From an uncultured Pyrinomonadaceae bacterium (lineage in GTDB: Bacteria > Acidobacteriota > Blastocatellia > Pyrinomonadales > Pyrinomonadaceae), in NCBI GenBank assembly GCA_964246655.1, contig CAXTSK010000001.1, positions 1 to 40,360 on the forward strand: DNA of 40,360 nt, in the 5' to 3' direction. The position numbers and the translations under genes were made by a program. The first letter of the stretch is position 1; every line of letters begins with the position of its first letter. Positions 4,463 to 39,685 of the stretch are shown here, in pieces. Under the pieces are notes generated by a model that worked only from the letters and a program-made list of their open reading frames with translations, searched no databases and was not told the origin of the DNA.

Positions 4463-4497
4463 TGTCTTCAAAGCTGTGCCTCTGTGTCTCCGTGGTG
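4463..4497. repeat. solo half-element of the CACAGAGA family (right-arm type)
   Basis: tgtcttcaaagctgtgcctctgtgtctccgtggtg closely resembles the right half of 2749-2826. Its reverse complement matches 6543-6569 at 25/27. It encodes the last residues and the stop of the dehydratase. Confidence 0.65.
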
Positions 4498-6539: not shown

Positions 6540-6572
6540 TTAAACCACAGAGACACAGAGGCACAGCTTTTG
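6540..6572. repeat. solo half-element of the CACAGAGA family (left-arm type)
   Basis: aaccacagagacacagaggcacagctt (6543-6569) is the inverted partner of 4471-4497. It lies 39 nt upstream of the dehydratase start, in the divergent promoter gap. Confidence 0.65.
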
Positions 6573-6607: not shown

Positions 6608-7054
6608 ATGATCACACGTCGCGACCTCTTCGTCGCACTCTTCGCGGTCGTCGTCACCCTCGGCGCCGTCGCCGCGCGCTCGCAGACCTCCGTCATGCAC
6701 TCGACGCTCTTCGAATGGAACGACGTGACTGCGAAGAAAACGGAGGTCGGCGCGCTGCGCCAGTTCTTCAGGTCGCCGACGGCGACGCTCGACGAGCTGG
6801 AGTTGCACGTCACGACCTTGAACCCGGGCGTCTCTTCGCACCCGCCGCACAAACACCCGAACGAGGAGTTGGTCATCATCAAGGAGGGCACGGTCGAGGC
6901 GATGGTCAACGGCGAGTTGAAGAAGGCCGGGCCGGGCTCCGTCATCTTCAACGCCTCGAACGAGCTGCACTCGATCAAGAACGTCGGGACGACGCCCGCG
7001 ACCTACCACGTCATCAACTGGCGCTCGCCCGGGACACAGAAGGCGCAGCAGTAG
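6608..7054 (+). CDS. secreted cupin-domain protein
   Basis: ATG with GAGGAG 8 nt upstream. Signal-like N-terminus MITRRDLFVALFAVVVTLGAVAARSQ. Cupin motifs HPPHKHPNEELVIIKEG and ELHSIKNVG. Confidence 0.85.
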   Translation: MITRRDLFVALFAVVVTLGAVAARSQTSVMHSTLFEWNDVTAKKTEVGALRQFFRSPTATLDELELHVTTLNPGVSSHPPHKHPNEELVIIKEGTVEAMVNGELKKAGPGSVIFNASNELHSIKNVGTTPATYHVINWRSPGTQKAQQ

Positions 7055-7065
7055 GAGGAAGAGAG

Positions 7066-8262
7066 ATGAGCGGGACACGTGCCGACCGTCGCACATTCAT
7101 CAAGGGCTCACTGACCGTGGCGGCCGGCGCCGTCCTGTTCGCCCTGCCCGAAGAGAAGTCGAAGGCACGCGCGCACGACGTGCACGGAGTCGGGGAAGCG
7201 CGCGTTCAGGAGGGGAGGGCGGAGCCGCCGAAAGAGCCGCGCCTGCGCTTCTCCGTCATCGGCATCAACCACGGACACATCAACGGCCAGATCGGCGCCG
7301 TGCAGAGGGGCGGCGGCCAGCTCGTCTCCTTCTACGCCAAAGAGCCCGACCTCGCCGCCGAGTTCGCGAAGCGCTACCCGCAGGCCCGTGCCGCGCGCGA
7401 CGAGCGGGAGATTCTCGAAGACGACTCGATCAAACTCGTCCTGAGCGCCGCGATACCCGAAGAGCGCGCGCCGCTCGGCGTCCGAGTGATGAGGCACGGC
7501 AAGGACTACATGTCGGACAAGCCGGGCATCACCACGCTCGAACAGCTCGCGGAGGTGCGGCGCGTGCAGAAGGAGACGCGACGCATCTACTCGATCATGT
7601 ACAGCGAGCGCTTCGAGAACGCGGCCACGGTCAAAGCCGGCGAGTTGGTTAAAGCCGGCGCCATCGGCCGCGTCGTGCAAACCGTTGGGCTCGGGCCGCA
7701 CCGCATCAACAACGGGCGGCGCGACCCCTGGTTCTACGAACGCAAACGCTTCGGCGGCATCCTCTGCGACATCGGCTCGCACCAGGCCGACCAGTTCCTC
7801 TTCTTCACCGGCTCGACGCGGGCCGAGGTGGTCGCCTCGCAGACGGGGAACGTCCAGCACCCGCAGCACCCGGAGTTCGAGGATTTCGGCGACATGATGT
7901 TGCGCGGCGACGGCGGGACGGGCTACGTCCGCGTCGATTGGTTCACGCCCGACGGCCTGAGCACCTGGGGCGACGGGCGCCTGACGATTCTCGGCACGGA
8001 CGGCTTCATCGAAATCCGCAAGAACGTGGACATCGCAGGTCGCCCCGGCGGCAACCACCTCTTCTTGGTCGATAAGAAAGAGACTCGCCACATCGACTGC
8101 GCGGGCGTCCGCCTCCCTTACGGCGAACAACTCGTGGACGACATCCTCAACCGCACCGAGACCGCGATGACGCACGAGCACTGCTTCCTCGCCACCGAGT
8201 TGGCGCTCAAGGCGCAGAAGGAGTCGCAGAGAATCGGCCCCGGGAAGATTGAACGAGCATGA
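7066..8262 (+). CDS. Gfo/Idh/MocA-family oxidoreductase with a twin-arginine signal
   Basis: ATG 7066 with AGGAGG 7 nt upstream. Tat motif in MSGTRADRRTFIKGSLTVAAGAVLFALP. Rossmann start RFSVIGINHGHINGQ. The longer track ORF (from 6574) overlaps the cupin gene and is Arg-rich. Confidence 0.85.
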   Translation: MSGTRADRRTFIKGSLTVAAGAVLFALPEEKSKARAHDVHGVGEARVQEGRAEPPKEPRLRFSVIGINHGHINGQIGAVQRGGGQLVSFYAKEPDLAAEFAKRYPQARAARDEREILEDDSIKLVLSAAIPEERAPLGVRVMRHGKDYMSDKPGITTLEQLAEVRRVQKETRRIYSIMYSERFENAATVKAGELVKAGAIGRVVQTVGLGPHRINNGRRDPWFYERKRFGGILCDIGSHQADQFLFFTGSTRAEVVASQTGNVQHPQHPEFEDFGDMMLRGDGGTGYVRVDWFTPDGLSTWGDGRLTILGTDGFIEIRKNVDIAGRPGGNHLFLVDKKETRHIDCAGVRLPYGEQLVDDILNRTETAMTHEHCFLATELALKAQKESQRIGPGKIERA

Positions 8263-9251
8263 AAGTGCTATTCATCGGCGGGACGGGATTCATCAGCACT
8301 GCCGTCAGCCGTCTTGCGGTCGCCGAAGGTCTTGACCTCTACCTGCTCAACCGAGGGTTGAGGAGCGCGGCTCCGCACGGCACACACGGTCTGACCGCGG
8401 ACATCAACAGGCCGGAAGATGTTCGCGCGGCCCTGCGCGGTTTACGGTTCGACGTGGTCGTCAACTGGATCGCCTACACGCCCGAAGACATCGAGCGCGA
8501 CTTGTCGCTCTTCCAAGGTCGCGCCGGGCAGTACGTCTTCATCAGCTCCGCCGCGGCTTATCAAAAGCCGCCCGCGCACTACGTCATCACGGAAGAGACC
8601 CCGCTCGTCAATCCCTTCTGGGACTACGCGCGCGGGAAGATTGCGTGTGAAGAAAGGTTGAAGCGGGCCCACGCCGAGGAGGGTTTTCCCGCAACGATAG
8701 TCCGGCCGTCGCACACGTACGAGACGAACTTCCCCGCCGCCGTCGGGGGCGGCGGCACGTACACGCTCGCCGACCGGATGAAGAAGGGCCTGCCGATTAT
8801 TGTGCACGGCGACGGCACTTCGCTGTGGACTTTGACGCACTCGGAAGACTTCGCGCGAGGCTTCCTCGGCCTGCTCGGCAACGCGGAAGCCGTCGGCCAA
8901 GCCTTCCACATCACCTCGGACGAGGTGCAGACGTGGGAGCAGATATACCGCGCCATCGCCGGGGCGCTGGGCGTGGAGGCGAACGTCCTGCACGTCCCGT
9001 CGGATTTCATCGCGCGCGTGGTGCCGCGCCTCGCAGGGACTCTGCACGGCGATAAGAAGTGGAGCGCCGTCTTCGACAACGGCAAGATAAAGAAGTTCGT
9101 GCCGGGCTTCCGCGCCGCCGTCCCCTTCCGCGAAGGGATTCGGCGGACGGTGGCGTGGTTCGAGGAGGAAGAGCGGCGACGGCGTGTGGACGAGTCCCTC
9201 GTCGAGGAGATGGATTTGGTTGTCAGGTCTTACGCCGCGGTTACCGGCTGA
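8259..9251 (+). CDS. NAD-dependent epimerase/dehydratase-family (extended SDR) protein
   Basis: ATGA overlap with the preceding gene. MKVLFIGGTGFIS glycine-rich loop, followed by an extended-SDR-like YxxxK element (YARGK). Confidence 0.85.
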   Translation: MKVLFIGGTGFISTAVSRLAVAEGLDLYLLNRGLRSAAPHGTHGLTADINRPEDVRAALRGLRFDVVVNWIAYTPEDIERDLSLFQGRAGQYVFISSAAAYQKPPAHYVITEETPLVNPFWDYARGKIACEERLKRAHAEEGFPATIVRPSHTYETNFPAAVGGGGTYTLADRMKKGLPIIVHGDGTSLWTLTHSEDFARGFLGLLGNAEAVGQAFHITSDEVQTWEQIYRAIAGALGVEANVLHVPSDFIARVVPRLAGTLHGDKKWSAVFDNGKIKKFVPGFRAAVPFREGIRRTVAWFEEEERRRRVDESLVEEMDLVVRSYAAVTG

Positions 9252-9290: not shown

Positions 9291-10067
9291 TCAGGAGTTG
9301 ACGCCGGAGGCGAGCATGCCGCCGTCCACGACGATGGTCTGCCCCGTGATGAAGGAGGCCGCGTCGGAGGCGAGGAAGACCGCCGCGCCCGCCACCTCTT
9401 CGGGGCGGCCGAAGCGTTGCATCGGCGTCCGCAACAGAAGCTCGCGCCCGCGCTCCGTGTCGTCGAGGAACTTCGCGTTGAGCTCTGTGCGGAAGACGCC
9501 CGGCGCAATCGCGTTGACGTTTATCCGGTCGCGCGCCCACTCGCACCCGAGGCTGCGCGTCAAAGCCACCACGCCCGCCTTCGACGCGCCGTAGGCGGCG
9601 ACCTCGTGAAAGGCCACGTAAGAGGAGAGCGACGCGACGTTGACGACGCGCCCGCGGCCGCTCTCCTTCAGCGGCGCGTAGAAAGCCTGACAGGCGCGCA
9701 GCATCCCCGTCAGATTCGTGTCCATGATCGCCTCCCACTCTTCTTCGGAGACTTCCGCCGTGGGCGCGCGCGCGGTGCGCCCCGCCGCGTTGATGAGGAT
9801 GTCCACCGCGCCAAAACGCTCAAGCACCGCGTCGCGCAGCGCGTCGATTGACCCGCGCTCGCCTACGTCCGCCGTCACGGCGTATGCCTTGCCGCCGCCC
9901 CGCTCGATCTCTTCACAGACCTCTCGGACAAGCTCGCCGCGCCGCCCCGAAGGGACTGTTCCGGCCCCCGCGCGCGCGAGCCCGAGCGCGATGGCCCGCC
10001 CGAGCCCCGACGTTCCGCCGACGACGACGGCCACGCGCCCGTTCAAATCGGTGATGTTCTGAGCCAT
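9291..10067 (-). CDS. classical SDR-family oxidoreductase
   Basis: VVVGGTSGLGRAIA cofactor loop, NAAG, and the S...YGASKAGV catalytic motif; 258 aa. Confidence 0.9.
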   Translation of the reverse strand: MAQNITDLNGRVAVVVGGTSGLGRAIALGLARAGAGTVPSGRRGELVREVCEEIERGGGKAYAVTADVGERGSIDALRDAVLERFGAVDILINAAGRTARAPTAEVSEEEWEAIMDTNLTGMLRACQAFYAPLKESGRGRVVNVASLSSYVAFHEVAAYGASKAGVVALTRSLGCEWARDRINVNAIAPGVFRTELNAKFLDDTERGRELLLRTPMQRFGRPEEVAGAAVFLASDAASFITGQTIVVDGGMLASGVNS

Positions 10068-16820: not shown

Positions 16821-19800
16821 CTAGAAGGACAGGCGGGCCGCGAAGCGCATGCTGCGCTGCGCGGTGCCGGTCGTCGCGGTGACGATGCCGAACGTGCTCG
16901 GGTCGGAGATGTTCGCGTTCGGGTTGGCGTAGTTCGGGTGGTTGAAGGCGTTGAGCGCCTCGACGCGTAGTTGCAGGCTGAGCGATTCCCTCAGAGGGAA
17001 GGTGCGGAACAGGCTCAGGTCGAGGTTCTTGAACCCCGGCCCGCGCAGGTTGTTGCGCCCCGCGCTGCCGAAGCGCGCGCCGTTCTCCGACGCCCACGCA
17101 CAGTTTGAGGTGCACAGGTTCGGGGCCAGGATCGTGTTGTCGAAGTAGGGCCGTCCCGGGCCGATGCCGTTCAGGTATCGAATCTCGGAGACAAGCTGGT
17201 TGGGCACCTGCTGGCTCCCGGCGGCGTTCAGGTTCGGCGCCGTGTTCTGCACGACGTAGAAGGGCGTCCCGCTCATGACGCTGAAGAGGCCGGTCAGCTG
17301 GAAGCCGCCGAGTAGCTTGCTGCCGACGCCGTCGCTCAGCCAGCGCTGCGACCTGCCGAGCGGCAGATCCCAGACGAAGTAGCCCTGGAGGTTGTGCGGC
17401 CGGTCGTAGCCCGCGGGGCCGCGGTTGCGCTCGGCCTCGGGCATGTACTGGATTCTCGGGTTGGCGTCGTTGTCGGCGTAGTTGATTGCCTTCGAGAAGG
17501 TGTAGGCGAGCCCGAAGAGCGAGCCCGTCCAGCGCCGGTTGAGCGTCGCCTGCAAAGAGTCGTACGTGGTCGTCTTGTACGGCTGGATCGAGTTGATGTC
17601 GGCGACGATCCTGACGGGGTTGCCCTGCGCGTCGGTCGTAAACAGCGGCCGGCCGTTGTTGCCCAGGCCCGGCGGGCCGGCGTTGATGTTGATGAAGCCC
17701 ATCTGACCGACCGCCCGCGTGCCGACGTAGCCGACGGAACTGGTGAAGCTCATCGGCAGTTGCCGCTCGACGATGAAGTTGAAGGAGTGAATCTCCTTAC
17801 GCATCGGCGTGGCTGGGTAGGTCGTCGTGCCTGTGTTCGAAGGGAGCCTGATGATGCCCTGCGTCAGGTCGGGCGGGGCGCTGGGGTTGATAAGCCCCTG
17901 CCGCAGCGTGGTGACCGGGAGGAAGCCGTTGTTGAAGGTGTTGAAGATGGCCGTGGGCATGGCGAAGAGGTTAACGACCGGGTACGCGTTGCGGAAGTCG
18001 ATGAACGGGCGCGGGTCGGCCGACTGGCCGTAGCCGCCGCGGAGCACAGTCTTGTCATTCCAGCGGTAGGCGACGCCGAAGCGCGGCAGGAACTGCCCCG
18101 GCCCGGACTCGGCCCCGCTGTCCTCGGGCACGCCCGTGAGCCCGCCCGTGTAGACGAGGCCCGTCGCGGGGTCGAAGCGGTTGATGCCCGTGTTGTCCTT
18201 GGTCGGGAACGGGTAGCGCTCCCAACGCAGGCCGTACGTCAGCGTCAGCTTCTGGTTGACCTGCCAGTGGTCACGCGCGTAGAGGGCGTAGGACTTCATC
18301 CGCAGCGAGTTCGGGTTGTGGAGTTGATCCACCTTGCCCGCGCCGCTCGGCAGTCCCAGAAGGAAGTCCGCCCAGTTGTTGAACCGGTTGGCTGTGGCAA
18401 CGAGGGCGGTTGTGACGGCCCCCGGCTGGCCGCAGACGGCCGTCCCGGTGTTGGGGGCGTCGCAGCCTTGCAGCGCCGTGATGTTGCCGCTGAACTGGAA
18501 CGTGCCGCGCACGGTCTGGAAGGTGCCGCCCTGCGGCTGAAAGTGGTTGAGTTGCTGGTTCTGGTAGTCGCCGCCGAAGCGGAACGAGTGCGAGCCCCTC
18601 AGCCAGGAAAGGTTGGTCGAGCCGACGTACTGGTTGTCGCGGAAGATGAACGGGTTGCCGGTGTTCGAGTTCCCCATGTTCGCCCAGTTGGCGACGTTGA
18701 AGAAAGGGATGCCGGCCTGGAGCGGGTCGGTGCCGTTGGTGCCGGGAATCTTCAGCACGTCGAGCCCGAAGTTCGTGCCCGAGACCACGTCGGGGCCGGC
18801 CGCGCCCAAACGCTGGCGCGTGTAGCCGAAGTTGGCGTCGAGGAAGAGCGACCCGTTGAAGGTGTATGTGCCGCCGAGCCCCGCGACCTGCACGCGCCCT
18901 GTCGCCTCGCCCAACTGGCCGCCGTTGATGGCGTCGCCGCCGGCCTCGCCCAGGATGGGCGGCTCGGTAATGAGCGTCGGCGAGATGCTGTAGCGACCGA
19001 AGAACGTCATCCGGTCGGTCGGGTTGTAGTTAATCTTGGTGTCGATGTTGTTGCGGTTGAACTCGGCCGTGCCGTTCGTCAGGTAGTTGTTGACGAAGCC
19101 GGGCAGGTTCGGCGCGGGCAGCCGCTTGATGAGTTCGACGGCCGCGAGGTCGATGCGGCTCGCCGGGATCGTGTTGTTCGCGAAGGGCGTGCGCAGCCGC
19201 GGGTCGGGGCTCGACGCCGGGTCGTAGATGGTCGCGCCGCCCTCGGCCGCCGTCGGGAAGTGGACGTTGCCCTGCGCGTCGGGGCGCAAGGACGCGGGCG
19301 CGATGCTCACCCTGTTGTCGCGCGAGAGGTTCCGACGCGTCGTGCGCTCGAAGTCGGTGAAGAAGAAAAGTTTGTTCTTGAGGATCGGCCCGCCCACCGC
19401 GTAGCCGAACTGCGTGAGCAGGTCTTTCGGGTTCTGCGGCGAGGTCTGGAAGTGGTTGCGCGCGGCGAAGCGGCTGTTCGTGTGATAGACCCAGCCCGTC
19501 CCGTGGAAGTCGTTCGTGCCCGACTTGATGATGACGTTGACGGCGGCGCCGCCCGCCAAGCCCTGCTCGGCGTCGAAGGCGTTGGTGACAATGTTGACCG
19601 ACTGGATGGCCTCGGCCGGCGGGACGTAGGCCGTGTTGGTCGGGAGCCAAGGGTAGGTGATGCTTGACCCGTCGATCTTCGTGTTGTTCTGAAGGCGCGA
19701 AACGCCGTTCACGTTGAAAGAGATGGAACGCTGCGGGCTGCCCGCGGCCGAGTTCTGCTCGCCCGCGAGCACCGAGCCTGGGACAATCTGCATCAAGCTT

Positions 19801-26308: not shown

Positions 26309-26336
26309 GTTAACCGCGGAGACACGGAGGCACGGC
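26309..26336. repeat. degenerate half-element of the CACAGAGA family
   Basis: gttaaccgcggagacacggaggcacggc differs from 6541-6567 by four A-to-G changes. It lies 15 nt beyond the permease stop. Confidence 0.4.
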
Positions 26337-28316: not shown

Positions 28317-28378
28317 GTTGGGTGTTGGGTGCTGGGTGTTAGGTGCTGGTTAAAACCAAAACCCAACACCTAACACCC
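28317..28378. repeat. junction palindrome, GGGTGTT/AGGTGTT family
   Basis: The left arm is five 7-mers (gttgggt gttgggt gctgggt gttaggt gctggtt). The right arm is aaacccaacacctaacaccc, about 2.5 units. It fills the hypD-stop to hypE-start gap. Confidence 0.75.
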
Positions 28379-29502: not shown

Positions 29503-30260
29503 ACTCCGGCCTCCCCTTCGACCAAAGACTTGTGCTGCAAGAACTCGTGCACCACGTCCCACATGACGTGGTAGAGGGCGACGTGCGTCTCCTGTACGCG
29601 GTGGATGCTCGAAGTGGGGACGGTCAGACAGAAGTCGAGCAGCCCCGCCGCGCGCAACTCTTCCATCCGACCGCCGTCGCCGCCCGCGAAGCCCAACGTG
29701 CCGAGCTTCAGGCGGCGCGCGGTCGCGAAGGCGTGCGAGAGGTTCTCGGAGTTGCCGCTCGTCGAGATGCCCAGAAGCACGTCGCCTTCCTGCCCGAGCG
29801 CGATGAGCTGGCGCGTGAACACGTCGCCGAAGCCCACGTCGTTCGCGACGGCTGTGACCATCGCCATGTCGTTCGTCAGGCAGATGGCGGGCAGCGCCTT
29901 GCGCCCCACCGTGACGGGGTGCATGAACTCGACGGCGACGTGCTGCGCGTCGGTCGCCGAACCGCCGTTGCCGCACACCAGCAGCTTGCGCCCGCGGTGA
30001 AAAGCCTTCGCCAGCAGGAGCGACGCCGAAAGGATCGTGTCCTTGTTCTCCTCGAAGAACTTCGACTTGACCTCGACGCTCTCGCGCGCCTTCTCCAGCA
30101 GAGAGAAGCGCAGCTCTTCCAACAACTCGCCCGGCCCGCGCTCGTCCGCGTGCAGGAAGGGGTAGAAAGCTCGCGAGAAATCCCCGCCGATTGCGGACTG
30201 CGGATTGCGGATTGCGGATTCGCCCTCTTCCTTCATTCCTTGTTTATTCCCCTGCGGCAT
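29499..30260 (-). CDS. SIS-domain (GmhA/phosphoheptose-isomerase-like) protein
   Basis: LLVCGNGGSATDAQHVAVEF...LLGISTSGNSENL. ATGA overlap with hypD. The N-terminal 25 aa (ESAIRNPQSAI) are encoded by a repeat arm, so the true start is uncertain. Confidence 0.8.
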   Translation of the reverse strand: MPQGNKQGMKEEGESAIRNPQSAIGGDFSRAFYPFLHADERGPGELLEELRFSLLEKARESVEVKSKFFEENKDTILSASLLLAKAFHRGRKLLVCGNGGSATDAQHVAVEFMHPVTVGRKALPAICLTNDMAMVTAVANDVGFGDVFTRQLIALGQEGDVLLGISTSGNSENLSHAFATARRLKLGTLGFAGGDGGRMEELRAAGLLDFCLTVPTSSIHRVQETHVALYHVMWDVVHEFLQHKSLVEGEAGV

Positions 30261-30312
30261 TCACATTCACCTCTTTAACAATCCACAATCCGAATTCCGC
30301 AATCCGCAATCA
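30189..30312. repeat. junction palindrome, GATTGCG family, copy 1
   Basis: Left arm gattgcggactgcggattgcggattgcggattcg; right arm caatccacaatccgaattccgcaatccgcaatc. The 56-nt loop contains ATG 30260. Positions 30278-30312 are identical to 38785-38819 (35 nt). Confidence 0.85.
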
Positions 30313-30581: not shown

Positions 30582-32900
30582 CTAAATCCTCCCCGCCAAG
30601 AGGCGGGCGTTGGCGACGGCCGCCTGGCCGAGACTGATGCCGCCGTCGTTCGGCGGCACGCGGCTGTGTGTGAAGACCTCGAAGCCTTCGCGCCGGAGCA
30701 GACGGCTCGCGCGTTCGAGCAGGAGCATGTTCTGGAAGACGCCGCCCGACAGCACGACGCGGTTGATTCTTTGCGCGTCCCTCACGCGGCGCGCGACGGA
30801 CGCGATGAGCGAAGCCACTCCGAGATGAAACTTCGCGGAGACCGTCTCGGGCGCGAGCCCTTCGAGCAGGTCTTCGACCGCGGCACGGACGACGCCTTCG
30901 GCCTTGATGACTCCATCTTCAAGCCCGAACTCGTAACCTTGCGCGCACGCGCGGTCGGCCACAGTCTCCAACTCAATCGCCGCCTGCCCTTCGTAGTTGA
31001 CCGCGCTTCGAACACACAGGAGCCCCGCCACGGCGTCGAACAGGCGGCCCATGCTCGACGTTTCGGGACTGTTCGTGCCGGACCTGGTCATGCCGCGCAG
31101 GGCGCCCCACGCGCGCCGGTCGAGCCTTCGGACGAATGGTAAATCCAAGTTTAGAAAGTCGTCGCCGAAAGTGCGTTGCAGGTAGACGGCGGCCATGCGC
31201 CAGGGCTCGCGGACGGCCCGCGCGCCGCCGGGCATCGGGACGTAGTCGAGGTGCGCGACGCGCTCTGCCCTCAAGAAGTCCGCGACGAAGAACTCGCCGC
31301 CCCACATGCGCCCGTCCGCGCCGAAGCCGAGCCCGTCCAGCGCGACGCCGATGACTTCGCCCTCAATCCGGTTGTCGGCCATGCAGCTCGCGACGTGCGC
31401 GTGGTGGTGCTGGACGCCGACGCGCTCGAACTCATCATTGAGCGCGAGCGCGTACTTCGTTGAGAGGTATTCGGGGTGGAGGTCGTGCGCGATTATTTCA
31501 GGCCGCAGTTGAAAGAGGCGCTTGAAGTGCTCGATGCCCTGCTCGTAGGAGCGCAGCGTCTCAAGGTTTTCCAGGTCGCCGACGTGTTGGCTGACGAAGG
31601 CGTGGCGGTCGCGCGCGAGACAGAAGGTGTTCTTCAACTCTGCGCCGCAGGCGAGGACTTCTCTTTTGAACTTAAAGCCCACCGCCAAAGGCGCGGGCGC
31701 GTAGCCGCGCGCGCGGCGCAAGACCATCTCCCGCCCTTCGTGCGCGCGCACCACCGAGTCGTCCGTCCGCATCTTGATTCGCCGGTCGTTGAGCAGCAAA
31801 TAATCTGCGATGTCGTGCAGACGTTCGCGCGCGTCGCCGTCTTCGTAGCAGATGGGCTCGTCGGAGACGTTGCCGCTGGTCAGCACGAGCGGGCGGTCGA
31901 GTTCTTCAAGAAGCAGTTGATGCAAAGGCGTGTACGGCAGCATGAAGCCGAGCGTCTTCACGCCGGGCGCGATGGCGGCGGGGAGGTTCGAGTCTTCTTT
32001 ACGCGCGAGCAGCACGACGGGGCGGCGCGGCGAGAGGAGCAGAGACTCCTCGGCCTCCGAGACGGCACAGTGGCGTCGCACGACTTCGACGGAACTCGCC
32101 ATCAGCGCGAACGGCTTCTCCTCGCGATACTTCCTCCCGCGCAGGCGTTCGACGGCGGCAACGTCCGTCGCGTCGCAGGCGAGGTGGTAACCGCCGACGC
32201 CTTTAACGGCGACGATCTTCCCGCCCAGGAGCAGACGGCGCACGTGGCCGATGATGTCTATTCCATCAACCTCGTCGAACTCGGCTTCAAGCCCGAACGC
32301 GTCCGTCAGCTTCAAATCTGGGCCGCAAGTCCGGCAGGCAATCGGCTCGGCGTGGAAGCGCCGGTCGAGCGGGTTCTCGTATTCGGCGCGGCACTCGTCG
32401 CACATCGCGAAGTCGCGCATCGTGGTGCGCGCGCGGTCGTAAGGCGTGGCCTCGACGATGGTGAAGCGCGGGCCGCAGTTGGTGCAGTTGATGAAGGGGT
32501 AGCGGTAGCGCCTGTCCGTCGGGTCGCGCATCTCGCGCAGGCAGTCCGCGCAGGTCGCCACGTCGGCCGAGACGGGGACGAACTTTTCGCCCGCGTCGGC
32601 GCTCTCGACAATCCGGAAGTCTTCGTACCGCGCCGGGTTTAAGTCATAGTCCGACTCGACCGACTCGACGAGTGCGAGCGGCGGTGCTTCGGTTTTAAGC
32701 TCGCCGACGAATTGCCCGATTGCGTCCTCGTCGCCTTCCACATCGATGAGCACGCCGGCCGTGTCGTTCAAGACCAGACCTTTGAGCGAGTGCCTTCGGG
32801 CGAGCGCGTAGACGAAGGGGCGGAAGCCGACGCCCTGCACGATGCCGCGCACACGTACCCGGACGCGCGTGAGGGTCAGACGTGTTTGGGCGAGGTGCAT
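30582..32900 (-). CDS. hypF: carbamoyltransferase HypF
   Basis: ATG 32900. Acylphosphatase domain VRGIVQGVGFRPFVY; two zinc-finger pairs (CADCLREM...CTNCGPRF and CDECRAEY...CRTCGP); YrdC-like and Kae1-like domains. The upstream extension of the track ORF translates the repeat (ITHHSSLIT). Confidence 0.95.
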   Translation of the reverse strand: MHLAQTRLTLTRVRVRVRGIVQGVGFRPFVYALARRHSLKGLVLNDTAGVLIDVEGDEDAIGQFVGELKTEAPPLALVESVESDYDLNPARYEDFRIVESADAGEKFVPVSADVATCADCLREMRDPTDRRYRYPFINCTNCGPRFTIVEATPYDRARTTMRDFAMCDECRAEYENPLDRRFHAEPIACRTCGPDLKLTDAFGLEAEFDEVDGIDIIGHVRRLLLGGKIVAVKGVGGYHLACDATDVAAVERLRGRKYREEKPFALMASSVEVVRRHCAVSEAEESLLLSPRRPVVLLARKEDSNLPAAIAPGVKTLGFMLPYTPLHQLLLEELDRPLVLTSGNVSDEPICYEDGDARERLHDIADYLLLNDRRIKMRTDDSVVRAHEGREMVLRRARGYAPAPLAVGFKFKREVLACGAELKNTFCLARDRHAFVSQHVGDLENLETLRSYEQGIEHFKRLFQLRPEIIAHDLHPEYLSTKYALALNDEFERVGVQHHHAHVASCMADNRIEGEVIGVALDGLGFGADGRMWGGEFFVADFLRAERVAHLDYVPMPGGARAVREPWRMAAVYLQRTFGDDFLNLDLPFVRRLDRRAWGALRGMTRSGTNSPETSSMGRLFDAVAGLLCVRSAVNYEGQAAIELETVADRACAQGYEFGLEDGVIKAEGVVRAAVEDLLEGLAPETVSAKFHLGVASLIASVARRVRDAQRINRVVLSGGVFQNMLLLERASRLLRREGFEVFTHSRVPPNDGGISLGQAAVANARLLAGRI

Positions 32901-32901
32901 A

Positions 32902-32977
32902 AGAGTGATGAGTGATGAGTGATGAGTGATAAGAAAGACCGGCGGGCCTTTGTCATCACTCATAACTCATCACTTCT
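32902..32977. repeat. junction palindrome, GTGATGA family, copy 1
   Basis: agagtgatgagtgatgagtgatgagtgataag pairs with tcatcactcataactcatcacttct, about 21 bp with 1 mismatch. The right arm encodes the hypB C-terminus and stop. Confidence 0.8.
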
Positions 32978-33630
32978 TTTACCTCGGTCAGGAACTGTAA
33001 AAGTCCGTCCATCCCTGCGCCGGTCTTCGAAGACACTTCGAAGATTTTCATGCCGGGGCGGACGGACTGGATGTTGGCGCGCGCGGCCTCCGCGTCGAAC
33101 TCGACGGCGGCGGCGATGTCCATCTTGGTGATGACGGCCACGTCCGCCGTGTTGAAGATGGTCGGGTACTTCAAGGGCTTGTCCTCGCCCTCGGTCACGG
33201 AGAGCAGCACGAGGCGCAGGCTCTCGCCGAGGTCGTAGCTCGCGGGGCAGACGAGGTTGCCGACGTTCTCGATGAAGAGCACGTCCATCTCTTCGAGTCC
33301 GAAGTCTTCGAGGCTGCGCTCGACCATCGAGGCGTCGAGGTGGCAGACCGTCCCCGTCGTTATCTGCCGGACGGGCGCATGGCTTCGGGCGAGGCGCGCG
33401 GCGTCGTTCTCGGTGGCGAGGTCGCCGACGAGCGCGGCGACGTTGAGCCGGGGCCGCAGCCGCGTGAGCACGCTTTCGAGGAGAGCGGTCTTGCCCGCGC
33501 CGGGGCTTGAGACGAGGCTGACGACGAAGACGCCGGCCGCGCGGAAGCGCTCGCGAAGACGGCGCGCGAGCAGGTCGTTCTGCTTCAGCACGTTCTGCCT
33601 GACTTCGACCAGGCGGGGCTGCGTGCTCAT
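32956..33630 (-). CDS. hypB: hydrogenase nickel-incorporation GTPase HypB
   Basis: P-loop SSPGAGKTALLE, CHLDASMV, ENVGNLVCPA, ITKMD. Confidence 0.95.
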   Translation of the reverse strand: MSTQPRLVEVRQNVLKQNDLLARRLRERFRAAGVFVVSLVSSPGAGKTALLESVLTRLRPRLNVAALVGDLATENDAARLARSHAPVRQITTGTVCHLDASMVERSLEDFGLEEMDVLFIENVGNLVCPASYDLGESLRLVLLSVTEGEDKPLKYPTIFNTADVAVITKMDIAAAVEFDAEAARANIQSVRPGMKIFEVSSKTGAGMDGLLQFLTEVKEVMSYE

Positions 33631-33977: not shown

Positions 33978-34065
33978 AAGAAAGTGAGCAGTGAGCAGTT
34001 GAAAGAAATACTGCCGCGCTCGCTTCAACTTGAAACTGCTCACTGCTCACCGCTCACTGCTTACT
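33978..34065. repeat. junction palindrome, GTGAGCA units
   Basis: A perfect 17-bp stem, gtgagcagtgagcagtt (33984-34000) with aactgctcactgctcac (34034-34050). The right arm carries extra units out to 34065. The inner element agttgaaag...cttcaact resembles 1253-1299. Confidence 0.8.
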
Positions 34066-34635
34066 GGCAACGATGTCGAACTTGAACTTCAGCTCGTTCT
34101 TGACCTTGAGCATGCCGCCGAGGGCCGTGACCGGCTTGATCTTGTAGTCGGCCTGCCGGATAGTAAACTCGCCCTGCGCGCGGAGGTCTTCGTCCTTGAA
34201 AGTCACCTCCGCCTGAATCCAGAGGTTGGGCTGGGTGACGCCGTGCAGGGTCAGGTTGCCGATGACGCGGGCGCGGTAGAGACCTTCCCTGACGCGGCTC
34301 GCCGTGACGCTCGTGCTCTCGAAGGAGACCTCCGGGTACTTCGAGACTTCGAGCGCGTCTTCGCGCATCATGCGGTCGATCTCGGGGCGATCCTTCTCCT
34401 TCGCTTCGTCCACCGTCGCGAGAGAAGCCGCCTTGATCGTCAGGCGGACGCGCGCCCCTTCGAGCGTGCCGGGGACGAACTCGACCTCGCCCCCGAAGTC
34501 GCCGATGCCGATGACGGGGTTGTGGCCGAGCGAAGAGAGCAGCCCCTCTGCGAACGCCTGCACGGTGAACCGGCTCCGGCCGGCGTCGAGCCGGTAGTGA
34601 ACCACTTCCGCAGCTTCCGCGGCGTTTCCGCTCAT
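34054..34635 (-). CDS. YceI-like (polyisoprenoid-binding lipocalin-like) protein, no signal peptide
   Basis: ATG with AGGAAGG upstream. SRFTVQAF...GHNPVIGIGDFGGEVEF...ASLATVD...REDALEVSKYPEVSFEST...GNLTLHGVTQP fits the YceI beta-barrel pattern. Confidence 0.7.
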   Translation of the reverse strand: MSGNAAEAAEVVHYRLDAGRSRFTVQAFAEGLLSSLGHNPVIGIGDFGGEVEFVPGTLEGARVRLTIKAASLATVDEAKEKDRPEIDRMMREDALEVSKYPEVSFESTSVTASRVREGLYRARVIGNLTLHGVTQPNLWIQAEVTFKDEDLRAQGEFTIRQADYKIKPVTALGGMLKVKNELKFKFDIVASKQ

Positions 34636-34719
34636 AAACCTTCCTGACGAGGGCGGCCGTCAGGGCCGGGCCGCCTCTCAGCTTCTACAGCCTCAGACCG
34701 CGGGCGGCCCGCGCCCCGT

Positions 34720-34962
34720 TCACATCGACCTGAGTTTCATGTAGCGCTCGAAGTCCGGGATAATCGTGGACAGTCCTCCGGCGAGGTTGCCCGGCTCCAA
34801 CAGACCGGCCGGCAGCACGCGGCCCAACGCTTCGCGCGCCTGTTGGCGGATGCTCGGGTTCGCCAGCAGCAACCCGGCCCCCACGATCAGGAAGCCGACG
34901 CCGGCGACCAGGAACGCCATCTCGTTCGAGTCGTTCGAACCGTTAGCCTCATTGTCTGCCAT
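34720..34962 (-). CDS. small single-pass membrane protein (80 aa)
   Basis: ATG 34962 with GAGGAGG 6 nt upstream. TM segment MAFLVAGVGFLIVGAGLLLA. The C-terminus IIPDFERYMKLRSM is paralogous to the next small ORF. Confidence 0.55.
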   Translation of the reverse strand: MADNEANGSNDSNEMAFLVAGVGFLIVGAGLLLANPSIRQQAREALGRVLPAGLLEPGNLAGGLSTIIPDFERYMKLRSM

Positions 34963-34983: not shown

Positions 34984-35060
34984 CGTGATGAGTGATGAGT
35001 GATAAGTGAAGAGATAAGCGGCAAGAAGCGTTATCCTTCTCATCACTTATTACTCATCAC
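34984..35060. repeat. junction palindrome, GTGATGA family, copy 2
   Basis: cgtgatgagtgatgagtgataagtgaagagataagcg pairs imperfectly with cgttatccttctcatcacttattactcatcac. Confidence 0.7.
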
Positions 35061-35253: not shown

Positions 35254-35805
35254 TCACGACACCGCCTGTGCGCGACTCTCGTCCAGAATTTTCGTGACAA
35301 GCGACTCGACCACCCCGACGGCCTCTTCGGCGGCGGCCTCGACCGGCCCGCTCAAACCCATCAGCCCCTCCTCGCCGCCGAGCGTCAACGGCTCGCAGCC
35401 GACGAGCAGGATGCGCTTGAACTCGCCGCCCATGGCCTTCACCATGCCGAGCACCTTCAGGGGGTTCATGCCGTGTGTTTCGACCATTATCCCCCCCTCT
35501 CCGGCGTCGTTCAAATCATTCAGGTCGGGCTCGATGGTGTAGAGCGTGCCGGGCTCTCCGCCGCGCGGGGTCGCGTCCACGAAGACGGTCACGTCGGGGC
35601 CGTCCATGATCGCGTAGGCGAGGTCGAAGCCGCGGATGCCGAAGTCCACCACGCGCACGCCTTCGGGAAGTTGCCGTCCGGCGAGGCGTCGCGCGACCTC
35701 GCAGCCGAAGGCGTCGTCGCCCATGAAGATGTTCCCGATGCCTGCGACGAGGATGCTCGTCGATTTCGGATTTGGGATTGCGGATTGCGGATTGAAGGAC
35801 ATCAT
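35254..35805 (-). CDS. [NiFe]-hydrogenase maturation endopeptidase (HupD/HyaD/HybD family)
   Basis: ILVAGIGNIFMGDDAFGCEVARRL, VDFGIRGFDLAY, VFVDA, HGMNP. There is no alternative start between the loop ATG and the conserved core, so the repeat arm (FNPQSAIPNPKS) must be translated. Confidence 0.9.
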   Translation of the reverse strand: MMSFNPQSAIPNPKSTSILVAGIGNIFMGDDAFGCEVARRLAGRQLPEGVRVVDFGIRGFDLAYAIMDGPDVTVFVDATPRGGEPGTLYTIEPDLNDLNDAGEGGIMVETHGMNPLKVLGMVKAMGGEFKRILLVGCEPLTLGGEEGLMGLSGPVEAAAEEAVGVVESLVTKILDESRAQAVS

Positions 35806-35849
35806 TGCTCTCCCTTAATCCGCAATCCGCAATCCGAGTTCCGCAATTG
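35762..35849. repeat. junction palindrome, GATTGCG family, copy 2
   Basis: A perfect 19-bp stem, ggattgcggattgcggatt (35775-35793) with aatccgcaatccgcaatcc (35817-35835). The 23-nt loop holds the overlapping stop (35802-35804) and start (35805-35803). Confidence 0.85.
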
Positions 35850-36146
35850 AGGAAGCGGCTCGACCTCTTCGGGCGAGAAGAAGAAGCGGTGGCCGGGCTG
35901 GCGTTGCATCCCGAGGTCGCGGCCCGGGTCGTCTTCGAGGACGACCGCCAGGTGGTTTCGGCCCTCGTAGTCCTGCTCGATTGATTCGACGACGGCGACC
36001 TGCCCCGCGAGCGCGAGGTCGAAGATGTCGCCGCCCGCCCTCGGGCGCAGACGGACGCGGTCACCCGCTTTGACCTCCACGCCCGAGACGTTGACGCCCT
36101 CGACCTGCGTCTTCTCCTCAAGCAGTTGCCACTCCCACTCGTTCAT
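35802..36146 (-). CDS. conserved hydrogenase-cluster protein of unknown function (114 aa)
   Basis: ATG start with coding-like composition (VKAGDRVRLRPRAGGDIFDLALAGQVAVVESIEQDYEGRNHLAVVLEDDPGRDLG...GHRFFFSPEEVEPL). The last 17 aa derive from the repeat arm. Confidence 0.7.
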   Translation of the reverse strand: MNEWEWQLLEEKTQVEGVNVSGVEVKAGDRVRLRPRAGGDIFDLALAGQVAVVESIEQDYEGRNHLAVVLEDDPGRDLGMQRQPGHRFFFSPEEVEPLPQLRNSDCGLRIKGEQ

Positions 36147-36156
36147 GGCTTCGTTG

Positions 36157-36244
36157 GTGAATAGTGAATGGTAAATAGTAAATGGAGAAAAGAGGAATCG
36201 GTTTTTAACTATTCACCATTTACTATTTACCATTCACTATTTAC
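36157..36244. repeat. junction palindrome, GTGAATA/GTAAATG units
   Basis: The 29-nt arms 36157-36185 and 36216-36244 match 28/29, with 26 contiguous. The AT-rich 7-mers are gtgaata gtgaatg gtaaata gtaaatg. The right arm contains the stop of the 361-aa gene. Confidence 0.85.
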
Positions 36245-37330: not shown

Positions 37331-37390
37331 CAGTTTTTAGTTTTTAGTTTTCAGTAAGAACGAATGTCATTAACTGAAAACTGAAAACTG
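37331..37390. repeat. junction palindrome, CAGTTTT units
   Basis: cagtttttagtttttagttttcagt (three units) pairs with actgaaaactgaaaactg (two units). Confidence 0.7.
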
Positions 37391-38030: not shown

Positions 38031-38042
38031 GAAACTCCTTAA

Positions 38043-38126
38043 GAGCCGTGAACCGTGAGCCGTAAACCGTGACAAGAATAACTGACCTTAAACTTGTCGC
38101 GGTTCACGGTTCACGGTTTACAGCTT
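38043..38126. repeat. junction palindrome, CCGTGAA units
   Basis: gagccgtgaaccgtgagccgtaaaccgtgacaag pairs imperfectly with cttgtcgcggttcacggttcacggtttacagctt. The right arm encodes the upstream C-terminus KAVNREP and its stop. Confidence 0.75.
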
Positions 38127-38778
38127 TCACCTTCAGCCCGGCGAAGAACGCTTCTATCCCGCGCCAGACCTCAGTACCGCCGGACAGTCCGCGCCAGCCC
38201 GCGCGGATCAGCCCGACGAGCTTGAAGCACTCGTCAATCGGTGCGATGTAGTAGTCGGCCGCGCCGCGCACGCGGTTGACGAGCAGAGCCTCCACGTCCG
38301 GCTCCAACTCGCGCAGCACCGGATTCTCTTCCAAGACCTCGGCCCACGCCGAGAGGTCTAAGAGCGACTCGGTCGCGCCCGCCGGGCTCGGGTAGAGCGC
38401 GAGCGTTCTCCCCGCGGGGCTGCTGTGGAAGAAGAAGGCCATGCCGATGGGGAGCATCAGGCTCTCCCACTGCGCGTCCGACATACGGAAGTCCGCGAGG
38501 TAGCGCACGCGGCGCGGGACGCGCCTGTACTTCGTCTCCGTCTGCCCGCTGAAGAGAATCGCGCACGCCTCGCAGGAGCAGAAGAGCTGGCGGGTCGGCG
38601 GCTCGAATAGGTGCGAGTGTTCGGACGACAGTTCTGCGCCGCACAGGTCGCAGCGCTCCGCCGCCGCCGCGCGCGGCCGCACGAAACGCCGCAGCACTTC
38701 GATTGCGGATTGCGGATTGCGGATTGCGGATTCTCCGACCACAGAAGACGGGCTGTTTTTTTCGAGGTCGTTCGTCAT
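38104..38778 (-). CDS. conserved hydrogenase-cluster protein, DUF5947-like, with a CxxC...CxCxxC motif
   Basis: ATG 38778 lies in the repeat loop; the track start at 38793 is a GTG inside the arm. ERCDLCGAELSSEHSHLFEPPTRQLFCSCEACAILF...YRRVP...MLPIGMAFFF...ALYPSPAGATES. Confidence 0.75.
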   Translation of the reverse strand: MTNDLEKNSPSSVVGESAIRNPQSAIEVLRRFVRPRAAAAERCDLCGAELSSEHSHLFEPPTRQLFCSCEACAILFSGQTETKYRRVPRRVRYLADFRMSDAQWESLMLPIGMAFFFHSSPAGRTLALYPSPAGATESLLDLSAWAEVLEENPVLRELEPDVEALLVNRVRGAADYYIAPIDECFKLVGLIRAGWRGLSGGTEVWRGIEAFFAGLKVKAVNREP

Positions 38779-38819
38779 CTCAGTACAATCCACAATCCGA
38801 ATTCCGCAATCCGCAATCA
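38701..38819. repeat. junction palindrome, GATTGCG family, copy 3
   Basis: The left arm is 4.5 x gattgcg (38701-38733). The right arm is identical over 35 nt to 30278-30312. The 52-nt loop holds ATG 38778. Confidence 0.85.
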
Positions 38820-38821
38820 GT

Positions 38822-39043
38822 TCAGGCCGGCGGCATGTTCGGGCTGTCGTCGTCCGACTCTACTTTGCCGGGGTTGATGGCCGTCGAATCTCTGGCGGTC
38901 GAGCCGCCGGAGGGGCGGTCGGCGTGCGTCGTCCCGGCGTCGTGACGGCCCGGCTCCTTCCCCTCGTCGTCCTTAATCTCCTCGCCCTGACGTGTGCCCG
39001 GCGTGTGCGTCGGCGCGTCCGCCGAAGTGTCCTGGTCTCCCAT
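38822..39043 (-). CDS. small acidic, low-complexity hydrophilic protein (73 aa)
   Basis: ATG 39043 with GAGGAGG 8 nt upstream. The stop abuts a repeat arm, as at other real gene ends. MGDQDTSADAPTHTPGTRQGEEIKDDEGKEPGRHDAG... Confidence 0.45.
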   Translation of the reverse strand: MGDQDTSADAPTHTPGTRQGEEIKDDEGKEPGRHDAGTTHADRPSGGSTARDSTAINPGKVESDDDSPNMPPA

Positions 39044-39624: not shown

Positions 39625-39685
39625 GGGTGTTAGGTGTTGGGTGAAAAACAAGTTGCCTGTCCCCAACACCCAACACCTAACACCC
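39625..39685. repeat. junction palindrome, GGGTGTT/AGGTGTT family, copy 2
   Basis: A perfect 19-bp stem, gggtgttaggtgttgggtg (39625-39643) with cacccaacacctaacaccc (39667-39685), and a 23-nt loop. Confidence 0.85.

Follow-up and report, generated by a model that had tools for sequence, protein, structure and literature searches.

In this study we examined a 40,360-nucleotide stretch of DNA from an uncultured Pyrinomonadaceae bacterium (the window: GenBank assembly GCA_964246655.1, contig CAXTSK010000001.1, positions 1 to 40,360 of the forward strand), and we asked why two distant inverted repeats, at 30189–30312 (copy A) and 38701–38819 (copy B), contain nearly the same arms around unrelated loops. 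The first-pass annotation had placed the start codon of a downstream gene in each loop and had read the arms as a structure that brackets translation initiation regions. We found that both copies belong to a lineage-specific class of "heptamer-zipper" palindromes, in which two convergent arrays of 7-nucleotide units are present at cistron boundaries; in copies A and B the class takes the form (GATTGCG)4–5 ... (CGCAATC)4–5, within the minus-strand hhy/hyp operon of a Pyrinomonadaceae-like genome. The first-pass observation was borne out and lies far outside chance expectation, and the kind of repeat is known but unexplained and is present here in a new variant form.

Structure of the two inverted repeats and translation of their arms

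The two inverted repeats were confirmed by direct reading of the sequence and with a repeat finder. Their arms were found to be tandem 7-nucleotide units, (GATTGCG)n on the plus strand and (CAATCCG)n/(CGCAATC)n, with 4.6–4.7 copies per arm (Tandem Repeats Finder, period 7). The right arms (30278–30312 and 38785–38819) were identical at 35 of 35 positions, as had been claimed. The left arms (30189–30224 and 38701–38736) contained two mismatches in 36 nucleotides, one of them in the first 32; a single-base difference over about 34 nucleotides had been claimed. The loops, of 53 and 48 nucleotides, were unrelated (local alignment score 11; mean for shuffled sequence 11.3), and a minus-strand ATG was present inside each of them, at 30260–30258 in copy A and 38778–38776 in copy B; on both points the first-pass annotation was correct. 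The (GATTGCG)3 sequence with up to 3 mismatches matched the window 15 times, as against 0 matches in 100 shuffles.

Both copies were read on the minus strand, in the direction of the mRNA. The 5′ arm of copy A (30278–30312) was GATTGCGGATTGCGGAATTCGGATTGTGGATTGT, the first bases of which overlapped the hypC stop codon TGA (30310–30312). Its loop (30225–30277) was the initiation region of a gene encoding a SIS-domain protein, with the Shine-Dalgarno (SD) sequence GAGGTGA at 30273–30267, an ATG at 30260 and an in-frame ATG at 30236. A minimal start-stop open reading frame (ORF; ATG TGA, 30266–30261) was seen at 30266–30258, between this SD and the directly adjoining in-frame ATG 30260. The 3′ arm, (AATCCGC)n at 30189–30224, was read as ESAIRNPQSAIG in the SIS-domain protein, an 11-amino-acid insert relative to most orthologues. 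In copy B, the 5′ arm (38785–38819) began 2 nucleotides past the stop codon (38822–38824) of an acidic ORF of 73 amino acids. In the loop (38737–38784), a DUF5947 protein began at ATG 38778, and its first ~14 codons (MTNDLEKNSPSSVV) were followed by a 3′ arm (38701–38736) that was a perfect (AATCCGC)4.6, read as GESAIRNPQSAI and then as the conserved (V)LRRFVRPR.

Folding of the mRNA segments, which the first-pass annotation had proposed, gave −53.7 kcal/mol (z = −5.2) for copy A and −60.3 kcal/mol (z = −8.4) for copy B. The predicted stem was interrupted and 30–33 bp long, with helices of 16–17 bp and 13–16 bp split by a 3×3 internal loop, and the internal loop GGAAUUCGG was conserved. The helices of 13–17 bp in these stems may be shorter than RNase III usually requires. 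The plus strand of both copies was predicted to fold nearly as well as the minus strand, and whole-segment folds of the two strands were mixed. An 8-nucleotide irregularity, GGAATTCGG, which contains GAATTC, was located in the 5′ arms at 30287–30294 and 38794–38801. It splits the predicted stem by the 3×3 internal loop into the 13–17 bp helices, and it recurred in other genomes (locus L068 at 9906–9930 and 6710–6745, and the SIS arm of locus L070).

A transposable element of the miniature inverted-repeat type was considered and rejected. The loops were unrelated and contained native gene sequence conserved in orthologues, and no target-site duplication was present; the flanks of copy A (GGAAT|...|GGCGG) and copy B (GAACT|...|GAAGT) showed no direct repeat. 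The view that the loop is not the cargo of a mobile element was thus upheld, since the orthologues contained locus-specific gene sequence at this place. The loops of copies A and B differ because each is the SD/ATG region and the first codons of its own gene.

The arms were also found within coding sequence. The SIS and DUF5947 ORFs both read GESAIRNPQSAI, and a third hairpin with the same unit (copy C, minus strand, 35757–35853) was present at the junction between a gene for a 114-amino-acid protein and the HycI protease gene. The 5′ arm of copy C encoded the C-terminal tail LRNSDCGLRI of the 114-amino-acid protein and its 3′ arm encoded FNPQSAIPNPKS of the HycI protease, while its apical loop contained an ATGA stop/start overlap (35805–35802) together with the SD AAGGGAGAG. 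Most SIS orthologues begin MSKESGKDFSRAFYPF, and the window protein reads MPQGNKQGMKEEGESAIRNPQSAIGGDFSRAFYPF. The conserved DFSRAFYPF followed directly after the SIS arm, with no ATG, GTG or TTG between. The same 11-amino-acid insert was present in the SIS orthologues P0122, P0125, P0133, P0137, P0150 and P0220 (for example MTKETE-SAIRNPQSAI-GGDF), and decayed versions of it were seen in P0163, P0187 and P0210. ATG 30236 reproduced the architecture of the orthologues exactly, and ATG 30260 had the stronger SD (GAGGTGA, 6 nucleotides upstream); on the gene models, the SIS start lies inside the loop whichever of the two is used.

All DUF5947 orthologues shared the start MT(N/T)D..., in which third codon positions differed synonymously (ACG/ACA, AGC/AGT), and ahead of the conserved LRRFVRPR each had a stretch of the (N)PQSAI type that varied in length. 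A DUF5947 start after the arm (GTG 38697–38695) was rejected: this codon was not conserved, being L or A in many orthologues, and the MT(N/T)D start was. At the HycI junction both arms were coding. The window and loci L021 and L068, which contained the hairpin, had the tails ...LRNSDCGLRI... in the 114-amino-acid protein and MMSFNPQSAIPNPKS in HycI; loci L022, L023 and L072, without the hairpin, lacked both tails. The N-termini predicted if the arms are translated are (M)KEEGESAIRNPQSAI, MTNDLEK... and MMSFNPQSAI. On the comparative evidence, then, SIS, DUF5947 and HycI each include a translated 3′ arm and the 114-amino-acid protein a translated 5′ arm, in agreement with the earlier claims that the left arm is translated and that it gives the same peptide in two unrelated proteins and a variant in the protease.

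GATTGCG/CGCAATC is free of stop codons on both strands, whatever the frame, which makes this family able to extend into coding termini. The peptides were variable and losable among orthologues and are thus by-products; when these genomes are annotated, tails like SAIRNPQSAI at the N- or C-terminus should be regarded as repeat-derived and not as functional motifs. Upstream ORFs were also seen to enter 5′ arms and to end at the first in-frame stop of the array, as at the DUF5947 end (38093–38129) and the HypB end (32953–32986), with lineage-specific C-termini as the result (for example DUF5947 ...KVKAVNREP* vs ...KAKSGAGREAARA in orthologues). The GATTGCG family was located inside hypF of relatives as well (L070 at 7784–7876 and 8360–8416; L021 at 17013–17049). 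There a full hairpin replaced the interdomain linker and a solo C-array added QSAI(RNPQSAI) just before VLRR, residues that also flank the DUF5947 insert (NPQSAIEVLRR).

Hairpins with heptamer arms at the cistron boundaries

Copies A and B are no special pair. The window was found to contain at least 14 hairpins with tandem-heptamer arms, 11 in the operon and 3 near 250–1550. A period-7 scan of the window detected 20 arrays, as against 0–1 each for periods 5, 6, 8 and 9; period 7 alone was enriched. About 10 distinct units were present, of which GATTGCG occurred three times, GTGATGA and GGGTGTT twice each, and AACCGTG, AGTGAGC, GTAAATA, CAGTTTT, GTAGACA, AAGTTCA and GGCAACA once. The tandem-heptamer nature of the arms, copy C and about 11 further heptamer hairpins with other units extend what the first-pass annotation had recorded. 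Two further distant pairs (39625–39685 with 28320–28378, and 32891–32986 with 34986–35059) were each seen to share a unit and near-identical arm stretches (e.g. GGGTGTTAGGTGTTGGGT) around unrelated loops. Shared arms with different loops are thus general here and not peculiar to copies A and B.

The right 12 kb of the window was a minus-strand cluster resembling a group-1h [NiFe]-hydrogenase (hhy/hyp) cluster, in the order large subunit (end), NifU-like, 73-amino-acid acidic ORF, DUF5947, DUF6084, two unknown genes, HycI protease, small ORFs, YceI, HypA, HypB, HypF, HypC, SIS-domain protein, HypD and HypE. The left 26 kb was an ordinary xylan/uronate utilisation cluster. Heptamer hairpins were present at 11 of the 17 operon junctions (about two thirds) vs 3 hairpins across the remaining 28 kb.

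The arrays followed a strict orientation. Neighbouring arrays of opposite type, at most 130 nucleotides apart, were counted in the window and in the related loci L021–L024, L029, L068 and L070, and the G-rich/C-poor array preceded the C-rich/G-poor array in 40 of the 41 pairs; in contigs labelled as viral (IMG/VR loci L073–L120) this order was found in 14 of 15. Reverse-complementing a hairpin leaves the rule unchanged, so it is uninformative on the strand that acts, but it is a genuine asymmetry.

The position of the hairpins relative to start and stop codons was also regular. Only 3 of the ~14 window hairpins contained a start codon in the loop, and most were located between a stop and a start or overlapped the end of the upstream ORF. 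At 25 junctions from the window, L021–L023, L068 and L072, a sample that includes orthologous junctions (which are not independent) and depends on the called starts, the hairpin ended between −8 and +19 nucleotides from the start codon, most commonly 8–13 nucleotides before it. With one exception, the upstream stop was within the 5′ arm or at most 9 nucleotides from it. The SD duplex energy over the 20 nucleotides before the start had a median of +0.4 kcal/mol at these junctions vs −6.5 at 62 hairpin-free junctions (Mann-Whitney p = 9e-7). A hairpin next to a start without SD is a suggestive, rather than conclusive, wider pattern of geometry. A second class, in which the loop contains the start, is made up of the three GATTGCG junctions. 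The 5′ arm began −46 to +9 nucleotides from the upstream stop, with many arms overlapping coding ends. Among 31 hairpins, the 5′ arm contained a stop triplet in 28 and the 3′ arm in only 11, and neither arm of the pure GATTGCG copy contained one.

In the window the 8–13 nucleotide spacing without SD was observed at five minus-strand hairpins. The GGGTGTT hairpin between hhyL and the NifU-like gene (39625–39685) and the hairpin with the same unit between HypD and HypE (28320–28378) were each followed by an ATG 11 nucleotides past the 3′ arm. The CAGTTTT hairpin between DUF6084 and a 361-amino-acid gene (37331–37390) and the GTAAATA/GTGAATG hairpin between the 361- and 114-amino-acid genes (36157–36244) had the ATG 8 and 10 nucleotides past the arm, respectively. 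The AGTGAGC hairpin between YceI and HypA (33983–34066) contained the stop TAA in its first unit and had the ATG ~12 nucleotides past the arm. Three further hairpins of this strand were arranged differently. In the AACCGTG hairpin (38040–38129), the DUF5947 stop was within the 5′ arm, and the SD AAGGAG and the GTG start of DUF6084 came after the 3′ arm. The GTGATGA hairpin upstream of an 80-amino-acid gene (34986–35059) was followed by the SD AGAGGAGGA. In the GTGATGA hairpin between HypB and HypF (32891–32986), the HypB stop was within the 5′ arm, and HypF probably starts at an ATG inside the base of the 3′ arm. Outside the operon, where no strand was assigned to the hairpins, GTAGACA was located at the 3′ end of a GntR-family gene (247–307), and AAGTTCA (1254–1299) and GGCAACA (1435–1548) upstream of this gene, the latter in a region without a Pfam-supported ORF.

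The geometry bears directly on the earlier reading, in which the hairpin would be a dedicated cis-regulatory loop around the initiation region, controlling the SIS, DUF5947 and HycI maturation genes. The bracketing itself stood at the three GATTGCG junctions, which share one geometry with the native initiation region in the loop. A dedicated device was not supported, as the majority of heptamer hairpins enclose no start codon. The start-in-loop geometry was confined to GATTGCG, the sole unit without stop codons on either strand, which indicates tolerance rather than design, and a start codon in a loop of ~50 nucleotides would not be occluded.

Retention, turnover and copying in related genomes

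The comparison covered 72 related loci, each extending ±10 kb. The nearest relatives were Pyrinomonadaceae metagenome-assembled genomes, and the gene order of the cluster was kept in L021, L022, L023, L068 and L072. Heptamer arrays were numerous in the close relatives (14 in L021, 16 in L022, 16 in L068, 15 in L070, and 9–10 in L024 and L029), and 20 more distant hydrogenase loci (relatives of at most 72% identity by HycI search), which served as negative controls, contained essentially none. All 15 arrays of the ~15-kb locus fetched for L070 were of the GATTGCG family, which in that genome behaves as a dispersed repeat family. The exact (GATTGCG)3 was found in 48 IMG/VR contigs (L073–L120), labelled viral or proviral, a status that is the database label only. 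Other heptamer units were present in many of these contigs, and several (e.g. L089, L102 and L109) were seen to contain 8–13 heptamer arrays with varied units (GTAGCCG, GAACCGG, GAATGCA and others).

The DUF5947 hairpin was old. The duplex between the sequence past the stop of the acidic ORF and the sequence ahead of LRRFVRPR was kept at −40 to −58 kcal/mol in the window, L021, L022, L023, L025 and L072 despite differing units, and the arms of L022 (GGATGGCGG / CCGCCGTCC) contained changes on both sides. L029 had a weak duplex only, and L024, which reads stop-AG-ATG at this junction, had none. Because the tandem units make the alignment register ambiguous, cognate and non-cognate duplex energies were compared instead of column-wise covariation. 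Cognate DUF5947 arms paired better than swapped arms, with 27 of 720 permutations doing equally well.

The SIS hairpin was younger and patchy. It was missing from most orthologues; L021 and L023 contained a 22-nucleotide spacer without hairpin, L022 had a different palindrome, and L072 had a decayed coding insert without a 5′ arm. L068/L069 and L070/L071 contained the SIS hairpin with GGAATTCGG, around loops of 80–90 nucleotides that held a degenerate proximal 3′ arm.

The 5′ arm of the window DUF5947 hairpin was the same as the SIS 5′ arm, including the derived unit GATTGTG, which was absent from the SIS arms of L068/L070 and from all orthologous DUF5947 arms. About 45 nucleotides present between arm and ATG in L021–L023 were missing from the window DUF5947 junction, and the exact 34-nucleotide arm was found in 0 of the 72 related loci. 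From the shared derived GATTGTG we infer, as the simplest reading, a recent gene conversion in this genome that placed the SIS 5′ arm at the DUF5947 junction. Such copying, rather than the bracketing structure proposed in the first-pass annotation, best explains why the arms of copies A and B are nearly the same.

The relatives also complete the case of the dedicated regulatory loop. The age of the DUF5947 version and its kept pairing speak for such a loop, and in L068 and L070 the proximal degenerate 3′ arm together with the distal coding arm makes alternative pairings possible. However, the hairpin was missing from most SIS orthologues and from some of those of DUF5947 (L024) and HycI. The comparison with orthologues lacking the element, which had been suggested earlier, thus supported the native loop and the translation of the arm, but showed the structure to be dispensable, and we consider control by a dedicated loop improbable.

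The variation in array length between orthologues recalls a phase-variation switch, in which a change of one unit of a 7-nucleotide array within the first 25 codons would shift the frame and turn off SIS, DUF5947 or HycI. The length of 7 nucleotides is not divisible by 3, arrays were present in N-terminal coding sequence, and a heptamer repeat drives hmw phase variation in Haemophilus influenzae (PMC12721329). However, all orthologues examined were in frame, most arrays were in non-coding spacers, and the genes encode maturation factors with housekeeping roles in a soil oligotroph, so that a switch of this kind is hardly to be expected here.

Possible action in the mRNA and comparison with described repeats

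Our preferred reading of the class has two parts, origin and action. Replication slippage, which in many bacteria is biased towards heptamers, probably creates the arrays and keeps them uniform, along with templated copying from arm to arm and from locus to locus. In the polycistronic mRNA, the arms would pair from the upstream stop codon onward into the interrupted stem of 30–33 bp, with −54 to −60 kcal/mol. Such a stem would most likely act after transcription: it would hold back 3′-exonucleases, possibly offer RNase III a site for parting the cistrons, and couple initiation at the downstream gene to translation of the upstream one. More commonly, the 3′ arm ends 8–13 nucleotides ahead of a start codon without SD. 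At the three GATTGCG junctions, the initiation region would be shown in a closed loop of ~50 nucleotides, and the ribosome would have to melt the stem ~7–26 codons in. We are highly confident of the structural and evolutionary identity taken by itself, that is, a heptamer-array palindrome family with a translated arm and copying within the genome. The whole package, in which palindromes born by slippage and conversion act as intercistronic mRNA hairpins on coupling, stability or processing, we put at about even chances.

Several results weigh against action in the mRNA. The stem mismatches were ~42 G·U vs 36 A·C, with no preference for G·U on the mRNA strand, and the two strands folded alike, so that an origin at the DNA level or a neutral origin fits equally. 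The search for RNA runs with the locus gave none, with partial matches in soil DNA runs only; folding, processing and the effect on translation are therefore all inferred. The hairpins were dispensable (SIS in most orthologues, DUF5947 in L024, HycI in L022, L023 and L072), their units turned over at orthologous junctions, and the matched changes on both arms could be explained by templated palindrome repair instead of selection. The junction counts were taken from related genomes that are not mutually independent, and Rehm et al. (PMC4692102) found no regulatory role for the heptamer repeats of Xanthomonas.

The same results lead to the main rival, a purely non-adaptive origin, in which the repeats would be by-products of slippage and template switching, or selfish elements, tolerated in spacers and dispensable tails and without regulatory role. 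Pairing would then persist by concerted mutation only, or since an unfolded insert would harm coupling. The presence, absence and unit turnover of hairpins at orthologous junctions agree with it, as do the decayed coding insert kept without a 5′ arm in L072, the solo arrays, the full hairpin in place of the HypF linker, the lack of strand bias among stem mismatches and the same arrays in IMG/VR viral contigs. Polymerase slippage has been given as the source of the heptamer excess, and the Xanthomonas study detected no function (PMC4692102). However, slippage alone would not yield inverted pairs of fixed orientation (40 of 41), and it leaves aside the concentration of hairpins in the operon (11 of 17 junctions vs 3 in the other 28 kb), the regular spacing to SD-less start codons and the pairing maintained across diverged DUF5947 orthologues. 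We regard a wholly non-adaptive origin as possible but on the unlikely side.

Action at the DNA level was also considered, as a cruciform, as a protein-binding site (for a hydrogenase regulator or a nucleoid protein) or as a recognition hairpin of the type used with repetitive extragenic palindromes (REPs) and REP-associated tyrosine transposases (RAYTs) or by IS200. Both strands fold alike, the orientation rule does not depend on the strand read, three 7-bp units correspond to two turns of B-DNA, and a NarL-type response regulator was present in the cluster of relatives. Against this, a single sequence-specific binder is ruled out by the presence of about 10 unrelated units in 12 kb, and for the same reason the binding site of a single regulator was rejected. 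The arms were located within coding sequence, no GTAG/CGTC REP tags, target-site duplications or conserved internal sequence were present, and the scanned genes of the window included no transposase or RAYT. An element acting on the DNA itself is, in our opinion, very unlikely.

Other known classes did not fit. No minus-strand intrinsic terminator was detected at any heptamer hairpin in the scan, and the 3′ arms were followed by GGCGGGGAU and GAAGUGCUG in place of a U-tract. Integron attC sites, with R″ (RYYYAAC) on the 5′ side and R′ (GTTRRRY) on the 3′ side of mobile cassettes, were rejected, as the gene order was conserved across genomes, which shows that the genes are not cassettes, and the core-like motifs of the GGGTGTT family were in the opposite order. 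Rfam gave 0 matches at the gathering score over the whole window. Rickettsia palindromic elements are in-frame palindromic repeats in coding genes that are translated as extra peptide segments, as here; unlike the arms of this study, they are conserved elements of 100–150 bp inserted as a unit, without tandem heptamers, and their arms do not bracket native gene sequence.

REP, REPIN and BIME (bacterial interspersed mosaic element) sequences of gamma-proteobacteria resemble the heptamer hairpins as dispersed palindromes in operon spacers just past stops that evolve in concert in each genome, and the cistron upstream of them can be stabilised by their hairpins in the mRNA (Di Nocera et al. 2013, PMC3733652; Bertels and Rainey 2011, PMC3116915). 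However, REPs are 20–40-bp units with GTAG/CGTC tags, mobilised by RAYTs and strictly extragenic, without internal 7-nucleotide periodicity and with one or few sequences per genome (PMC3733652, PMC3116915). The class was rejected for this locus, where the arms began TGATTGCGG / GATTGCGG without a GTAG/CGTC tag and were translated rather than strictly extragenic.

The nearest described kind is the convergent pairs of heptameric simple sequence repeats in Xanthomonas. The repeat GGGAATC is present there in 70–75 pairs per genome, on opposite strands and convergent, and Nostoc contains GGGGA(C/T)T repeats (Rehm et al. 2015, PMC4692102). As in the window, the Xanthomonas arrays are tandem 7-nucleotide units, typically of ~4 copies, in convergent orientation, and their length and sequence differ between close relatives; they are mostly intergenic, near the end of the upstream ORF and between co-oriented genes, they are transcribed, and their function is not known (PMC4692102). 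Xanthomonas uses a single unit capable of forming a G-quadruplex, whereas here many unrelated units were present, most without this potential (GGG tracts occurred in the GGGTGTT family only). Unlike those of Xanthomonas, the arms in this acidobacterium often overlap ORF ends and are translated, and they bracket start codons or stand in for an SD 8–13 nucleotides before the start.

A precedent, by analogy, for post-transcriptional function of such a structure is the hmw hairpin of H. influenzae. In the hmw 5′ untranslated region a hairpin with an (ATCTTTC)n arm is, as experiments have shown, cleaved by RNase III, and cleavage raises expression (Rapun-Araiz et al. 2025, PMC12721329). As here, a heptamer array forms an arm of a long predicted mRNA hairpin upstream of the start codon. 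In hmw, however, there is one repeat arm only, the pyrimidine-rich arm is 5′ (the opposite orientation), and the structure is limited to a single locus with adhesin phase variation (PMC12721329). The TAACTGA repeats of Beggiatoaceae and cyanobacteria and the short tandemly repeated repetitive (STRR) sequences of cyanobacteria are also heptamer arrays, of several types in some genomes; TAACTGA sets end a few nucleotides from start codons, and a role in translation has been proposed (MacGregor 2015, PMC4679880). Unlike the window arrays, they are direct, almost never form inverted pairs and have no long hairpins predicted (PMC4679880). The literature search found nothing on the exact repeat strings and no paper on heptamer hairpins in Acidobacteria.

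The over-representation of heptamers in bacteria has been known since 2007 and is still unexplained, and the only inverted-pair form described, that of Xanthomonas, is without known function. The present locus is a far denser and more varied example, with a hairpin at about two thirds of the junctions, strict orientation, regular spacing without SD and arms translated on both sides, and the close relatives offer natural variants with and without each hairpin. Two long-standing questions, whether such repeats act in the mRNA and by what mechanism convergent arrays are created, thus become testable. A more speculative extension, to which we assign a rather low probability, is a modular system of Pyrinomonadaceae and their phages that had so far gone unrecognised, in which polar adding and converting of repeats would build the arrays, and the stems would replace SDs and enforce termination-reinitiation coupling or RNase III punctuation. 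If true, it would span a starvation-induced hydrogenase operon, with arms free to extend into protein termini.

Two other types of repeat were observed in the window. A second, unrelated intergenic family with the core CACAGAGACACAGAGGCACAG and a periodicity of ~8 nucleotides was located at 2757–2823 (as a hairpin), 4474–4494, 6546–6566 and 26315–26335. It included an inverted pair, 4470–4496 and 6544–6570, that was 96% complementary and located on either side of a dehydratase gene. In L068 (3668–3830), a large palindrome of this family was nested within the loop of the DUF5947 hairpin. The spacer between the 80-amino-acid gene and YceI (34640–34720) contained GC-rich palindromes without heptamer periodicity (GGGGCGCGGGCCGCCCGCGG; GAGGCGGCC...GGCCGCCCTC), and the palindrome at the hypC-SIS junction of L022 was GC-rich and resembled them.

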